Under the pieces are notes generated by a model. That model was given only the letters and a program-made list of their open reading frames with translations. It searched no databases and was not told the DNA's origin. 64,000 nucleotides of DNA from Corynebacterium sp. (lineage in GTDB: Bacteria > Actinomycetota > Actinomycetes > Mycobacteriales > Mycobacteriaceae), in assembly GCF_030530965.1 (NCBI RefSeq), contig NZ_JAUMTY010000004.1, forward strand, positions 12,057 through 76,056, in the 5' to 3' direction. The position numbers and the translations under genes are program-made. Below, in pieces: positions 4,564 to 53,771 of the stretch (position 1 is its first letter; every line of letters starts with the position of its first letter).

Positions 4564-6458
4564 TGAACAAACCGTGGCCCTCATCGCGACGCCGACGTGT
4601 CGTCGCCGTCAGCACCGCACTCTGCATCGGGGCGGCATCGTCAGTATCAGGGTGCGCCACTTTGCCCAGCCGTAGCGATCCGAAAGCTATCCATTCCTAC
4701 GCGCCGGGGGAATCGGGCACAACCGTTCCCGGGCCCCAAAAAGGAGACGCCCCCGACGAAGTGCTCCGCGGGTTCTTCTCGGCCTCAGCTCACCCGTCGC
4801 ATAGTCACAAGGCCGCTCGCGCGTTCCTGACCAGCAAGTCGTCGGATTCATGGAAAGACGGTAATGATGCGTTCATCGTCCAGCAGCTCAACATTAATTC
4901 GTCGGGTCAACCGTTGGATGATGAAGCGACCTTCGATGTGTCGGGCTCCACAATTGGCGTTCTGGGCGATGGGGGAACGTTCACCCCACGTAGCGGGTAC
5001 TACCGTTCACAATTCAAACTAAAGAAGGTCAACGGCGAGTGGAGAATTTCGTCGGTGCCCGAGGGCATCATCCTCCAGAGCGTCGACTTCGAACAGACCT
5101 ATCGGGCCTACTCGGTGTACTTCTTGGACCACACCGGCCGGTACTTAGTCTCCGACCGACGGTGGATCTATTCCCAGCAAGACACGATTGAATCAAGCCT
5201 CATGTCGCTCCTAGCCAGTGGGCCGCGCCAGGAACTCGCGCCCGGCATTGGCACCGCTCTGCCTGCGGGAACGTCGATTACTGCGAAGAGCGACAAAGCC
5301 GGCGGGTCTACCGTCGATATCAAAGGGCTGTCCCAAGTCAGTAGCGACGACCGCCAAAAGATCGCCGGGCAGATCGTGTGGACACTCATTCACGCCGATG
5401 TGCGTGGACCGTTCACCCTCATGGCGGATGGAGCGCCCCTGCTTGACCAAGCGCATAAATCGCTGAACGCGTCCGACGTCTCTGACCTCAACCCTGAGCC
5501 GCCAGAGATGAACACCCTTCACGCCGTTGCGGACGGAAGTCTCGTGATGATCTCGGATTCGGGCGCCACTGGTGATCGTGGCCCATTCGGACGTGACGGC
5601 AAGATCCTCTCTGCCGGGATTACGCCGAATGGTGGTCTAGCTGCAGTCGTGGAACGCGACAACACCGGGGATGATGACGAAGGTCGTGGCCAGTCAGACA
5701 GCGGCAATAGTGTTTTGCGCATCGGGCACGTGATGGATACCGACGCCGACACCCGGAATAGCCTGGAGGACGCCGATGGGGCGGCGCAACCCATTGTGCG
5801 CGGTCGAACGCTCACCCGGCCGTCCTGGTCAGAAGACGGCACAGTGGCCTGGACCGTCGCCGATGGCAAAGAAATCCACCGCGTTGAATACCAAACCGGG
5901 ACGGACAGCAAATCCGGGTCCGGGAGCGTCAAGAACGAATACATCGTGGATAACGACGCTCTCCGAGGCCAACTCCGCAGCGACGACGACGGCGACGACG
6001 AGAATAACGACCACAAAATCAGTGAATTCCGCGTCGCCAACGACGGCGTGCGGGCGGCCATGATCATCGGCGGCCGCGTGTTCACGGCGATTATCGCGCC
6101 GGGCGAGGGCGGTAAGAGCCGCATCATGTCTCCTCGCGAGCTGGGCGAGGTTTTTGTGGGCGACACCGCGACGAGCTTGGATTGGCAACCAGATGGTTCG
6201 CTCTTAATTGGCACGCAGTCGCAGGACGCGCCGATATGGAGTGTTCAACCCGACGGCTCCGATGCAACCAGGCTGACCTCGAACAACGTGCAGGCCCCGG
6301 TGTCGGCCGTGGCGTCCACGCGCAACGAGCTCTACATCACCGATTCGCGGTCTGTGCTCCAGTTGGAGCGGAACAACTCGTCGGATACAGCGACGCAGAA
6401 CTGGCGTGAAGTGCCTGGCCTGCAGGGCATTCGCGCGCAGCCGATCGTCTCCCGGTAG
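4560..6458 (+). CDS. lpqB: lipoprotein LpqB (MtrAB accessory)
   Basis: ATGA overlap with mtrB. Signal peptide with lipobox VSGC. Conserved third gene of the mtrAB-lpqB operon. Confidence 0.85.
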   Translation: MMNKPWPSSRRRRVVAVSTALCIGAASSVSGCATLPSRSDPKAIHSYAPGESGTTVPGPQKGDAPDEVLRGFFSASAHPSHSHKAARAFLTSKSSDSWKDGNDAFIVQQLNINSSGQPLDDEATFDVSGSTIGVLGDGGTFTPRSGYYRSQFKLKKVNGEWRISSVPEGIILQSVDFEQTYRAYSVYFLDHTGRYLVSDRRWIYSQQDTIESSLMSLLASGPRQELAPGIGTALPAGTSITAKSDKAGGSTVDIKGLSQVSSDDRQKIAGQIVWTLIHADVRGPFTLMADGAPLLDQAHKSLNASDVSDLNPEPPEMNTLHAVADGSLVMISDSGATGDRGPFGRDGKILSAGITPNGGLAAVVERDNTGDDDEGRGQSDSGNSVLRIGHVMDTDADTRNSLEDADGAAQPIVRGRTLTRPSWSEDGTVAWTVADGKEIHRVEYQTGTDSKSGSGSVKNEYIVDNDALRGQLRSDDDGDDENNDHKISEFRVANDGVRAAMIIGGRVFTAIIAPGEGGKSRIMSPRELGEVFVGDTATSLDWQPDGSLLIGTQSQDAPIWSVQPDGSDATRLTSNNVQAPVSAVASTRNELYITDSRSVLQLERNNSSDTATQNWREVPGLQGIRAQPIVSR

Positions 6459-19278: not shown

Positions 19279-19385
19279 CCAATCGCGCCGTCCCGCTGGC
19301 AACCACTATGCGTGCCGACGCGGCTCGTTCGCGAGTCTAAGCACAGAAGAGAGTCTTCAAGGTGCACGTCGTGAGGAGGTTCTCT

Positions 19386-19973
19386 GTGGCTAATCAAGCC
19401 GATTTTGAAGAGCAAGCAATGCCGCTGTTGGACCAGCTCTATGCGGGTGCGCTGCGGATGACACGGAATCCACCGGACGCGGAAGACCTTGTTCAAGAAA
19501 CGTATATGAAGGCGTATCGCAATTTCGGGTCTTTTAAAGAAGGCACGAATTTGAAGGCCTGGATGTATCGCATTATGACGAATGCGTACATCAATGATTA
19601 CCGCAAGGCCCAGCGTCGGCCGACGGAATCGCCGACTGATGAGATCACCGATTGGCAATTGGCCGCCAACGCCGAGCATGACTCGACGGGGCTGGAGTCG
19701 ACCGAGGTTGAAGCACTAAAAAACATTCCCGACGATCGTATTCGTGATGCCCTCATGGATCTTCCCGAGGACAATCGGATGGTTGTTTACTACGCCGACG
19801 TCGAGGGGATGCCGTATAAGGAGATCGCTCATGTGATGGGTACTCCGGTGGGAACGGTGATGAGTCGCCTTCACCGCGGAAGAAAAAAGCTGCGGGAAGC
19901 GTTAAAGGAAGTGGCCTCGGAACGTGGCATAGGCGGCGTCCAAACTGCTGGATCTGCTGAAACACATAAATAA
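19386..19973 (+). CDS. sigH: ECF sigma factor SigH/SigR-like
   Basis: Sigma70 regions 2 and 4 ([14 protein letters not shown]..., ...[26 protein letters not shown]). GTG start after GGAGG. Followed by a ZAS anti-sigma. Confidence 0.85.
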
Positions 19974-20008: not shown

Positions 20009-20350
20009 ATGTATGAAAGGAACGACCCCATGACTCATCACTGCGGGAATGAACCCAAGGATGAGGAGCCTGGCGCGTCAGACTCCTCAGCATCTGCCGG
20101 CGGGTATGCGCTCGATAGTTGTTGTCACGACATTATCGACGAGTTGAACGATCTTCTGGATGAACCATGCAATCCGGAGCGACGTCAGGCGTTAATGGAG
20201 AGGGTGAATAGCTGCCCGGAGTATTTTGAGGCCTACGGGATTGAGCAAACCGTGCGTAGTCTCCTTCGTCGTAGCTGCTCAGAGCCGGCGTCTCGCGAGT
20301 TGCGTGCCCGGATTCACGTGGCGATTACGGAGCAAATTCGCTACGAGTGA
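20009..20350 (+). CDS. rshA: zinc-binding anti-sigma factor (ZAS) RsrA/RshA-like
   Basis: HxxxCxxC-type motif ...CCHDIIDELNDLLDEPC...SCPEY.... Immediately downstream of sigH. Confidence 0.8.
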   Translation: MYERNDPMTHHCGNEPKDEEPGASDSSASAGGYALDSCCHDIIDELNDLLDEPCNPERRQALMERVNSCPEYFEAYGIEQTVRSLLRRSCSEPASRELRARIHVAITEQIRYE

Positions 20351-20995
20351 GCCGGGTGTGTTGTCTCCGCGCCGTTGTCGTCGGTCTCAGACACGGGGAG
20401 TGTCGACGATATTTAGGGGGTAAGTAGCAGGAGACACCGTGCGCAATGAGCTTGCTCAAGAATCTCTCTACAGGGGGTGCAGCGGGTCCATTCATGTTCT
20501 TCTGGGGAAGAGCGTCAGTCGAGGCTAACGAGGGAAAATACCCAAAATACAATTGCGCGCTGGCTGACCGTAGGCACTAAAAATAAGGACCTCGGCGGCA
20601 ATAATAATGGGTAATATTCACAAGTTCATAGATGGATCGGTTGCTTCAATTTTGGCGGATGGTTGGTGGCAACGCCTCGTAGTCAGCACTCAGAATTGAA
20701 TTTGGACCGATTCTGCCGAAATGCTGAATAATTATATTCGCTATAGTTTTACTCACTCGATCTCGAAAATCGATTGAGCTTTCGTCACCTACGCGGCACT
20801 GCAATATGTATCAAACTTGGACGAGCCCACAGAGTCACTAAAGGCAGTTTGTAGAGTGATGGCCGCTGGGGGAATTGTTGCCGTATGATGGCTGCCCGGG
20901 GGAATTGTTGCTGTGGAGCTGTTCGCCTCCGAGATGTACCACACTCCTGTGTAACCCAGTCTTATGAGCCTGAAGCTGGATGGAAAACCGGTGTC

Positions 20996-21127
20996 ATGAA
21001 AGGATATGTGCTTCCTGCAAATCGTCAAGAAGCAGCCGAAGTTCTTCGGGCAGCAGGGTTTTCATCTGTTGAGATCAAACTCAAAGCCGGGTACCTCCGA
21101 TGTGCAGCCACAAATATGGAACTTTAA
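20996..21127 (+). CDS. candidate 43-aa ORF (MKGYVLPANRQEAAEVLRAAGFSSVEIKLKAGYLRCAATNMEL) in low-GC island
   Basis: Low-GC codon usage unlike flanks. Weak RBS. Could be a gene fragment. Confidence 0.2.
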   Translation: MKGYVLPANRQEAAEVLRAAGFSSVEIKLKAGYLRCAATNMEL

Positions 21128-21166
21128 CCAACAAAACCTAACTCTTAACTACCTGAAAGGACTTTC

Positions 21167-21340
21167 ATGACACGTTATTTCACGGCCCTGATGGTTTACA
21201 TGTATGTGTTCTCGATTGTCGGAATTACGTTCGATGGTTTTGATTCGAAGGAGGGAGCTATCACTACTGCGCTTCTTTCTTCAGCGGCTGCTTTTGTGGT
21301 CTATTTCCTATATCCAATCTTCCGCCGCCGCGATAAGTAG
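21167..21340 (+). CDS. 57-aa two-helix hydrophobic membrane protein (not in ORF track, below length cutoff)
   Basis: AAGGA RBS 6 nt upstream of ATG. MTRYFTALMVYMYVFSIVGITFDGFDSKEGAITTALLSSAAAFVVYFLYPIFRRRDK. Strong terminator follows. Confidence 0.5.
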   Translation: MTRYFTALMVYMYVFSIVGITFDGFDSKEGAITTALLSSAAAFVVYFLYPIFRRRDK

Positions 21341-21354
21341 TCAAATATCTTATG

Positions 21355-21403
21355 GGCGGTGCGGACACAATCATCCAGGATTCTGTCCGCACCGCCTTTT
21401 GTT
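21355..21403 (+). terminator. rho-independent terminator (13-bp perfect stem ggcggtgcggaca/tgtccgcaccgcc plus TTTTGTT)
   Basis: Seen directly. Follows the 57-aa ORF. Confidence 0.7.
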
Positions 21404-21432
21404 GCTTAACCCGATATTTATAGACGAGAAAA

Positions 21433-21465
21433 GGGTGAACCTCATGGTGAGTTCACCCTTTTTGT
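21433..21465. terminator. bidirectional intrinsic terminator (gggtgaactc/gagttcaccc, T-tracts on both strands)
   Basis: 10-bp stem. TTTTTGTT on plus strand, TTTTCTCGTC on minus strand. Serves minus-strand bL37. Confidence 0.65.
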
Positions 21466-21519
21466 TATGAATTGTGTCAGCCATTCGGCAGCTGCACTAG
21501 ATGTTTCACGCGAGGTGTT

Positions 21520-21594
21520 TTATGCGCTGGGCCGCTTGCCGTGGTTAGCCTTCTTCTTGCGGCGGTCCTTGCGCTTGCGTCCACGTTTGCTCAT
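21520..21594 (-). CDS. 50S ribosomal protein bL37 (24 aa, MSKRGRKRKDRRKKKANHGKRPSA)
   Basis: AAGGAGA RBS 6 nt upstream. Near-identity of pattern to mycobacterial bL37 (MAKRGRKKRDRKHSKANHGKRPNA, recalled from memory). Not in ORF track because under 60 aa. Confidence 0.7.
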   Translation of the reverse strand: MSKRGRKRKDRRKKKANHGKRPSA

Positions 21595-21626
21595 CGCGGC
21601 TCTCCTTTACTTGATTGGGGGCAGTG

Positions 21627-21643
21627 GACGTGCAGTGCACGTC
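21627..21643. promoter_or_regulatory. 17-bp palindrome gacgtgca-g-tgcacgtc in the bL37 5' region
   Basis: Perfect 8-bp arms. Lies between a TATAAA-like box and the bL37 RBS on the minus strand. Confidence 0.4.
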
Positions 21644-21817
21644 GTGTCTTTTTATAGGGCCGGGCCACGCGCGGGCGGTCACGACGCCATAGGAAGGTGA
21701 TTTTATCGAATGGTCATTGTGATAGCTAACGCGGTCTGATCCCGGGTTTCAGTTATCTACCACGGATCGCCTGGTGAGCTCACGCGCGCTGTGCCGTCGT
21801 CAGTGAACTAACGAGCC

Positions 21818-22078
21818 TTAGACCGTAGCGCGACGACGGGAGTTGTTGCGGTTGCGGCGGCGCTTCAGAGTGCGTCGTTCGTCTTCGCTCATGCCACCCC
21901 AGACGCCGGCGTCCTGGCCGGTCTCGATGGCCCAAGCGAGGCACTGAGAGGTCACTGGGCAGCGGTTGCAGACGACCTTTGCACGAGCGATCTGTGCCAG
22001 TGCGGGGCCGGAGTTTCCGACGGGGAAGAACAGTTCGGGGTCTTCGTCACGACAAACGGCTTTGTGGCGCCAATCCAT
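21818..22078 (-). CDS. whiB1: WhiB-family Fe-S transcription factor, WhiB1-like
   Basis: MDWRHKAVCRDEDPELFFPVGNSGPALAQIARAKVVCNRCPV...GVWGGMSEDERR four-Cys WhiB signature. Confidence 0.9.
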   Translation of the reverse strand: MDWRHKAVCRDEDPELFFPVGNSGPALAQIARAKVVCNRCPVTSQCLAWAIETGQDAGVWGGMSEDERRTLKRRRNRNNSRRRATV

Positions 22079-22342: not shown

Positions 22343-22358
22343 GTGTTGAACATCACAG
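22343..22358. promoter_or_regulatory. CRP/GlxR-like site TGTGTtgaacaTCACA
   Basis: Matches TGTGA-N6-TCACA with one mismatch. In the 620-bp non-coding stretch upstream of whiB1 (mycobacterial whiB1 is CRP-regulated). Confidence 0.35.
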
Positions 22359-22714
22359 GAACTGTTTTTGACAGCGAGCCGTCAACCTCTAGCATTATTT
22401 GGATTGTTTGCGATAGCTTCCTTAAGCCTAAAAAGCGACAGAGCGTCACCTTAAAAGCGCTGGATATTCGGGTGAATATCACGGAAATTCAAGGTAAACA
22501 CAGGGTAGCTATGGGGGTGGCAGGGCCTCATATGCACATGTTTCAGGCTCGTATTCCGTCCGATGTGCTTGCAGTACGGCAATCAGCCTGGTTGCGGTTT
22601 CATTGCCGACGACTATTGACGACGACGAACCCGCGCGTGGGGCGTCGTCGGTGCCGGGGTTGCTACAGTGAGCGTGTGTCTAGTTCCCGTAAGAAGCGTT
22701 CGGTCAATCGTGGT

Positions 22715-23224
22715 ATGCAGCGGAAGTCTGACCAGCGGCCGTCGTCAGGCCAGCCCCGCGAGGATGTGCAGCCAGCGCACGACCATCAGAACAATGCCCG
22801 AGAGGCAGAATTAACGCTCCCGTCGACCGTGAAGTGGGCGGGCTACGTCGGCATAATTGAAGGTGCTGTGGGGCTGATTGCTGCGATCGTGATGGTCATT
22901 CAAACGGCCCGGGGACACGGCGATGGCGACGCGAAAGTTGAGGGAGTGCTGGCCAGCTGGGGTAGTGGCTACGGAACGGCATTATGGTTTGTCATCATCT
23001 TCGGCGCTGTTGCTGCAGCCGGATGGGCATTGACCCGCGGTAAGCGGTGGGGACGTGCTCCAGTGGCAATGCTGAATATGCTTCTGCTGCCGGTGGCTTG
23101 GTACATGTTCTCATCGTCCCGGCCGGAGCTGGGCATCCCGACGCTTCTTGTGTCCCTGGTCGGCCTCGGGCTGATCTTTAACCCCGCCGCGGTGTCCTGG
23201 GCGGCATCACGATACGGCCAATAG
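22715..23224 (+). CDS. small integral membrane protein (4 predicted TM), function unknown
   Basis: Hydrophobic segments from about residue 170 of the track ORF. N-terminal 120 aa of that ORF look non-coding. Start uncertain (ATG 22715 or GTG 22676). Confidence 0.5.
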   Translation: MQRKSDQRPSSGQPREDVQPAHDHQNNAREAELTLPSTVKWAGYVGIIEGAVGLIAAIVMVIQTARGHGDGDAKVEGVLASWGSGYGTALWFVIIFGAVAAAGWALTRGKRWGRAPVAMLNMLLLPVAWYMFSSSRPELGIPTLLVSLVGLGLIFNPAAVSWAASRYGQ

Positions 23225-53697: not shown

Positions 53698-53771
53698 CGC
53701 GGGGTGGAGCAGCTCGGTAGCTCGCTGGGCTCATAACCCAGAGGTCGATGGTTCGAATCCGTCCCCCGCTA
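53698..53771 (+). tRNA. tRNA-Met (CAT), initiator type
   Basis: CGCGGGG acceptor. GGG/CCC at base of anticodon stem. CTCATAA loop. GGTTCGAATCC T-arm. Position 1:72 is C:U mismatch. CCA not encoded. Confidence 0.85.

Follow-up and report, generated by a model that had tools for sequence, protein, structure and literature searches.

A 24-codon gene, almost certainly for ribosomal protein bL37, downstream of whiB in a Corynebacterium of the kroppenstedtii group

Described bL37 proteins and the peptide encoded in the window

The ribosomal protein bL37 is conserved throughout Actinobacteria, being encoded by MSMEG_1916 in M. smegmatis and left unannotated in M. tuberculosis H37Rv (PMC10081302). 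In the large subunit it is enclosed by H39, H40, the H41/H42 junction, H72 and H89 of 23S rRNA, and makes contact, at the peptidyl-transferase centre, with the buried face of H89 (PMC5876184); the C. acnes protein also contacts the tip of 5S rRNA (PMC10085706). M. smegmatis deleted for the gene was normal in growth, antibiotic sensitivity and global translation (PMC10081302), and a synthetic version of the C. acnes peptide was active against S. epidermidis and S. aureus in disk assays (PMC10085706).

The window analysed here, i.e. the whole stretch of 64,000 nucleotides of Corynebacterium DNA, carries on the minus strand at 21520-21594 a coding sequence of 24 codons plus TAA (ATG AGC AAA CGT ... 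GCA TAA), the translation of which is MSKRGRKRKDRRKKKANHGKRPSA. An earlier inspection of the letters and of an ORF list (the sequence-only reading) had proposed this 24-residue ORF as a bL37 gene missing from the list. Sequence and translation confirm the ORF, and it is indeed absent from that ORF track, though public annotation has the gene. The AAGGAGA ribosome-binding site that had been placed 6 nt upstream was found at 21601-21607 on the minus strand, where it is followed by GCCGCG and then by the bL37 ATG. An in-frame TAA lies five codons 5' of this ATG and none of the four codons between (AGG AGA GCC GCG) is a start, so that the ATG at 21594 is the sole possible start of bL37. The predicted product (24 aa, 2.9 kDa, pI 12.0) contains 13 Lys or Arg residues.

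An ORF of this kind could be a chance or compositional artefact, i.e. a short Lys/Arg-rich intergenic frame that happens to resemble bL37: it has just 24 codons, residues 3-15 are low in complexity, and the HMMER bias terms are sizeable (16.2 in the bias column). Nevertheless, MSKRGRKRKDRRKKKANHGKRPSA scores 47.3 bits against the NCBIfam equivalog model NF047428.1 (ribo_Myco_bL37), for which the curated cut-off is 30, with residues 1-24 aligned to profile positions 1-24 of 24. A search of PDB chain sequences gave meaningful E-values for bL37 chains only (5o60_3, E 1.8e-6; 7kgb_v, E 2.2e-6; 8crx_V, E 7.2e-6), with gapless, full-length alignments; the bL37 chains among these matches come from M. 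smegmatis, M. tuberculosis and C. acnes only, none being from Corynebacterium. As a control for chance similarity, an HMM built from the three PDB bL37 sequences alone was run against every stop-to-stop segment of 15 aa or more that the window contains, 2,005 in all. The bL37 ORF was the sole segment to score (43.8 bits, E 3e-12); the runner-up reached 10.5 bits.

The peptide matched no family in the local copy of Pfam-A at E up to 10, yet in five NCBI assemblies a precomputed table assigns PF26427 (HR_L37) to a 24-aa product of identical sequence; possibly the PF26427 model postdates the local copy, or filters removed the match. Membership of the planctomycete family NF047429.1 (ribo_Plancto_bL37) was considered and rejected: residues 10-23 are weakly similar to this model, which is 32 positions long, and the score of 16.5 bits is far under the cut-off of 40.

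The M. smegmatis protein (MSMEG_1916, UniProt A0QTP4; PDB 5O60/5O61/5XYM and others) likewise has 24 residues, aligns ungapped over 1-24 with 17/24 identities, and has the C-terminal ANHGKRP in common with the window peptide, which differs from it at residues 2, 8, 9, 12-14 and 23 (S2, R8, K9, R12, K13, K14 and S23 in the window). Association with the ribosome is shown for M. smegmatis bL37 and predicted for the window protein. The mycobacterial bL37 that the sequence-only reading had quoted, MAKRGRKKRDRKHSKANHGKRPNA, is exactly that of PDB chain 5o60_3. M. tuberculosis bL37 (PDB 7KGB, 7MSC and others) belongs to the same family, also with 17/24 identities; it is reported to be unannotated in H37Rv, at 3,597,967-3,598,041, whereas public records for the window species annotate the gene. 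The C. acnes protein (FB41_0958; PDB 8CRX) again has 24 residues, with 18/24 identities and an RRKK-type middle segment as in the window. C. acnes is, like the window host, a human skin-associated actinobacterium, but of a different order, Propionibacteriales, and antimicrobial activity has been reported for its bL37 peptide.

Upstream of bL37 on the same strand, at 21818-22078, lies a WhiB1-like gene of the whiB family, which served as a synteny anchor and for whose product PF02467 (Whib) is recorded under an identical protein. Many assemblies have an identical WhiB, and that of a C. kroppenstedtii genome is 99% identical; the flanking DNA of the window is 93-96% identical to that of loci L001-L007 and L009, in which WhiB is identical or 99% identical. 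We assign the DNA of the window to C. kroppenstedtii or a close relative. The bL37 gene is not new, given that the protein, its family model and the exact sequence are already public: MSKRGRKRKDRRKKKANHGKRPSA is ckrop_1488 (ACR18217.1) in the record of C. kroppenstedtii DSM 44385, and RefSeq names the exact peptide "MULTISPECIES: 50S ribosomal protein bL37 [Corynebacterium]". The assertion that such genes are routinely left unannotated proved to depend on the pipeline. Among eight loci with an identical WhiB, the 24-aa gene is called in none of the three ENA metagenome assemblies, in keeping with the assertion, but in all five NCBI assemblies, and the RefSeq name also speaks against it.

Two further observations concern the neighbourhood. 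Divergent from whiB is a plus-strand ORF at 22343-23224, of up to 293 aa and called at 182-293 aa in related assemblies, which has a hydrophobic C-terminal half and no Pfam or NCBIfam family. Exact-protein look-ups of the 457/444-aa neighbour in the window returned no record.

Conservation of the reading frame and of its neighbours

Conservation was assessed in 80 species-representative loci (L009-L088) that were fetched via the neighbouring whiB, which makes the comparison independent of bL37 itself. By record title these actinobacterial loci belong mostly to genera of the Mycobacteriales and Pseudonocardiales, including Corynebacterium, Mycobacterium, Mycolicibacterium, Rhodococcus, Nocardia, Gordonia, Williamsia, Tsukamurella, Saccharopolyspora, Lentzea, Kutzneria and others, and their WhiB proteins are 77-99% identical. 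Six loci end too soon downstream, leaving 74 that are informative for bL37. All 74 have the bL37 ORF downstream of whiB and in the same orientation, the variant peptides of L010, L013, L065, L075 and L076 being found with looser patterns or with the HMM; the frame conservation whose absence would, according to the sequence-only reading, have told against the proposal is present throughout.

The C-terminal ANHGKRP, which is not repetitive, is invariant or nearly so in these relatives, and this speaks against an artefact of composition. A16, N17, G19, R21 and P22 are identical in 74/74 sequences, the regular expression used for 73 of them having fixed exactly these residues, whilst H18 is kept in 72/74 and K20 in 69/74. 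Residue 23 (codon 21526-21528) is Ser in the window and in loci of the kroppenstedtii group; it is Asn in 71 of the 74 bL37 sequences tallied, with the other two being Ser (L009, kroppenstedtii group) and Leu.

Within the 24-codon core, for which the comparison comprised 73 distinct nucleotide sequences and 40 distinct peptides, variation falls mainly in third codon positions: mean entropy is 0.37, 0.38 and 0.98 at positions 1, 2 and 3, respectively, i.e. 2.6 times as high at the third position as at the first two. The pN/pS ratio of the bL37 sense frame is 0.32, the lowest of the six frames, the other five giving 0.50-1.98. Against six other Corynebacterium species there are 3-14 differences per 75 nt, overwhelmingly in third positions, and in the DNA alignment the bL37 coding sequence forms a block of identity with spacers on either side that are unalignable between species. 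An SD-like core is present at -4 to -18 of bL37 in 73/73 related loci. The pN/pS ratio and the third-position entropy show that the bL37 reading frame is under purifying selection, and conservation and pN/pS together refute, for practical purposes, the view that the ORF is an artefact of chance or composition, to which we attach a negligible probability. The identification of the peptide as bL37, as first proposed from the letters, stands on its score against NF047428.1, on the end-to-end alignment with PDB chains and on its conservation in relatives.

In 14 of 73 loci (L012, L014, L016, L017, L019, L020, L022, L029, L030, L033, L034 and others) we also observed that the bL37 ORF extends beyond residue 24. 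The longer forms in Mycobacterium and Mycolicibacterium loci have 2-11 additional residues (e.g. ...RPNAGSKSVR), giving lengths of 26-35 aa, and two forms of 25 aa are found, both in Saccharopolyspora loci. The longer form occurs in no solved structure among the PDB matches.

Opposite the gene, two plus-strand ORFs are present in the ORF list, at 21467-21700 (77 aa) and 21472-21657 (61 aa). Both are longer than bL37, and it might be argued that one of them is the real gene and that the bL37 frame is its antisense shadow, the more so as the 77-aa frame has a pN/pS of 0.50 over the bL37 core. This value is, however, expected because the wobble positions of the 77-aa frame coincide with those of bL37, and the frame is broken inside the bL37 core in 25/74 loci, including most other Corynebacterium species. 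The 61-aa ORF is the direct reverse-complement frame and is open in 73/74 loci, but only because the Lys/Arg-rich bL37 lacks TTA, CTA and TCA codons, and its pN/pS is 1.74. Furthermore, the lengths of the plus-strand ORFs vary from 6 to 672 aa in relatives, both ORFs would have to extend into the spacers that cannot be aligned between species, and neither ORF has a Pfam match. The probability that either is the real gene is in our estimate vanishingly small; the frame interruptions, the high pN/pS of the 61-aa frame and the lack of a Pfam match bear out the original description of both as antisense artefacts of bL37.

The order of the surrounding genes is also kept. In the window bL37 is convergent with two plus-strand genes, sigH (19362-19973; TIGR02947 SigH_actino, 304.8 bits, cut-off 251.55) and an rshA-like anti-sigma factor gene (20009-20350; TIGR03988 antisig_RsrA, 59.5 bits, just below the cut-off of 62.5). 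Across the fetched loci whiB1 is followed by bL37, which in turn faces rshA-sigH, with sigH convergent downstream in 70/73. The neighbourhood in M. smegmatis is the same as that in the window, with bL37 downstream of whiB1 and convergent with rshA-sigH, presumably MSMEG_1915 and MSMEG_1914, respectively; the position of the window gene, between whiB1 and the convergent rshA-sigH operon, is orthologous to that of MSMEG_1916. The distance between whiB and bL37 is about 150-230 nt in the window and in other Corynebacterium, whereas in mycobacterial loci, and in the other genera, it is about 2 kb, with one extra gene between the two.

Transcription signals and an insert beside the terminator

Downstream of bL37, an intrinsic terminator is predicted at 21421-21466, comprising a hairpin at 21429-21462 with an A-tract and a T-tract on its two sides, such that it would be usable on either strand. 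An inverted-repeat search gave the arms as AAAAGGGTGAAC and GTTCACCCTTTT, which are perfect over 12 nt. The hairpin folds with -18.3 kcal/mol on the minus strand, where it is followed by UUUUCUCG, and with -19.4 kcal/mol on the plus strand, where it is followed by UUUUUGUUAUG; none of 200 shuffles of the 111 nt downstream of bL37 folds as well as the native sequence (z = -3.3). A simple terminator scan did not list this hairpin, because its stem has a one-base bulge. In close relatives the end of rshA abuts the terminator region, the terminator being common to the convergent bL37 and rshA, and we infer that the hairpin acts as a terminator. The sequence-only reading had reported a bidirectional terminator 55 nt downstream of the gene: its bidirectional character agrees with a hairpin that has a U-run on either strand, but the distance needs correcting, since the first paired base lies 57 nt past the bL37 stop.

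A permissive Rfam scan raised two candidates here, STnc320 at 21421-21480 (36.8 bits, compared with a gathering threshold of 50) and MicX; both were rejected, as each matches the terminator hairpin. The sole Rfam match at gathering level in the 64-kb window is a tRNA gene at 53698-53771 on the plus strand (59.2 bits).

On the upstream side, whiB and bL37 are separated in the window by a spacer of 223 nt that contains no terminator. A consensus promoter scan of the minus strand upstream of bL37 gave no site, with only a weak TATAAA at 21651-21656; several Corynebacterium species have a −10-like TAnnnT hexamer about 35-45 nt before the ATG, of which the window version is only TATAAA. The spacer also contains a perfect 8-1-8 palindrome of 17 nt, GACGTGCACTGCACGTC, at 21627-21643 (minus strand), 33-49 nt upstream of the bL37 start, which could be an operator, a leader hairpin or nothing functional. 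It is kept in L008, an 87%-identical locus of the kroppenstedtii group, and is absent in other Corynebacterium species. A structured leader RNA upstream of bL37 was rejected: the fold has a z of -0.26 relative to shuffles, and the palindrome, of which the window has a single copy, is conserved only within the kroppenstedtii group.

An insert of 996 nt (20416-21411), which nine close relatives lack, separates the end of rshA from the terminator in the window. Copies of a perfect 9-nt direct repeat, CGATATTTA, flank it at 20407-20415 and 21412-21420, and its GC content is 48%, compared with 57-58% in the DNA on either side. Neither a transposase nor clear terminal inverted repeats are present, and the window has no second copy; searches of Pfam, PHROGs, PADLOC, plasmid, phage and Rfam resources gave no matches, and exact-string scans of metagenome and viral contigs found nothing.

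Within the insert, a 57-aa ORF at 21167-21340 (plus strand) has a ribosome-binding site, two hydrophobic segments and its own terminator hairpin at 21355-21396. Only two relatives of this ORF were found among 5.8 billion proteins, one identical (Corynebacterium sp.) and one 70% identical; an exact-protein look-up in a separate index gave no record. The 70%-identical relative is encoded at 5001-5174 of Logan contig L089, in a cluster with two Ala/Gly-rich peptides of 59-65 aa, an HTTM-domain protein, a hydrolase, a 438-aa methyltransferase-like protein and ABC transporters. Possibly the cluster serves for the synthesis and export of a peptide, and the 57-aa product may confer immunity or act as an accessory membrane protein. 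Four pieces of the L089 cluster are patched together in the insert, which consists of an internally deleted methyltransferase-like pseudogene and the intact 57-aa gene. The former, at 20427-20988, is what remains, after decay and internal deletion, of a copy of the gene for the 438-aa protein, in four blocks of 74-88% nucleotide identity, and includes a tandem duplication of about 30 nt at 20857-20914; an 80-aa ORF at 20885-21127 (plus strand) is merely the C-terminal remnant of this gene.

Predicted role of the window bL37 and its significance

We consider it almost certain that 21520-21594 on the minus strand is the gene for the large-subunit protein bL37 of a Corynebacterium of the kroppenstedtii group. 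The ORF and its signals, its family membership, conservation, purifying selection and synteny are drawn from the window and its relatives, and the fold, binding pocket and structural role of the product would be those seen in published structures of its orthologues. On this model a short mRNA would begin inside the whiB-bL37 spacer, or arise by read-through from whiB, and would end at the intrinsic terminator; translation would proceed from the one ATG available, behind a canonical Shine-Dalgarno sequence. The peptide would then lie buried in 23S rRNA, in a pocket that H39, H40, the H41/H42 junction, H72 and H89 form beside the peptidyl-transferase centre and beneath the tip of 5S rRNA, and would there neutralise backbone charge and tie the helices of the pocket together, i.e. 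act as an rRNA staple near the catalytic centre.

The main role of bL37 might instead lie outside the ribosome, e.g. as a released cationic antimicrobial peptide of the type proposed for C. acnes, since the host is a skin- and breast-associated Corynebacterium, the synthetic C. acnes peptide is active against S. epidermidis and S. aureus (PMC10085706), and the M. smegmatis deletion is without detectable ribosomal phenotype (PMC10081302). Disk-assay activity of a polycationic synthetic peptide is, however, non-specific evidence; the window peptide has no signal peptide and its gene no adjoining export gene; and bL37 is also conserved in soil and environmental Actinobacteria that lack such a niche, and is buried in rRNA in every solved structure. 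We see only a very faint probability for such an extra-ribosomal role, and retain the assignment to the large subunit.

The tail-to-tail arrangement with sigH-rshA, which are associated with redox and heat stress, suggests one regulatory scenario, although we regard it as highly improbable. Read-through from sigH-rshA under stress would give antisense RNA over bL37 and hence less bL37, coupling thiol-oxidative stress to ribosome composition near the peptidyl-transferase centre; in the window, the 996-nt insert would uncouple the two.

With respect to gene finding, this locus demonstrates that a sequence-only reader can catch a 24-codon gene that is missed by length-filtered ORF tracks and by Prodigal-type metagenome calls. 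The window bL37 may accordingly serve as a positive control for small-ORF detection, and otherwise adds little beyond bookkeeping. With respect to the ribosome, bL37 lies near the peptidyl-transferase centre and near the oxazolidinone and orthosomycin binding sites, so that its presence is relevant when structures of mycobacterial ribosomes with drugs are extrapolated to Corynebacterium.
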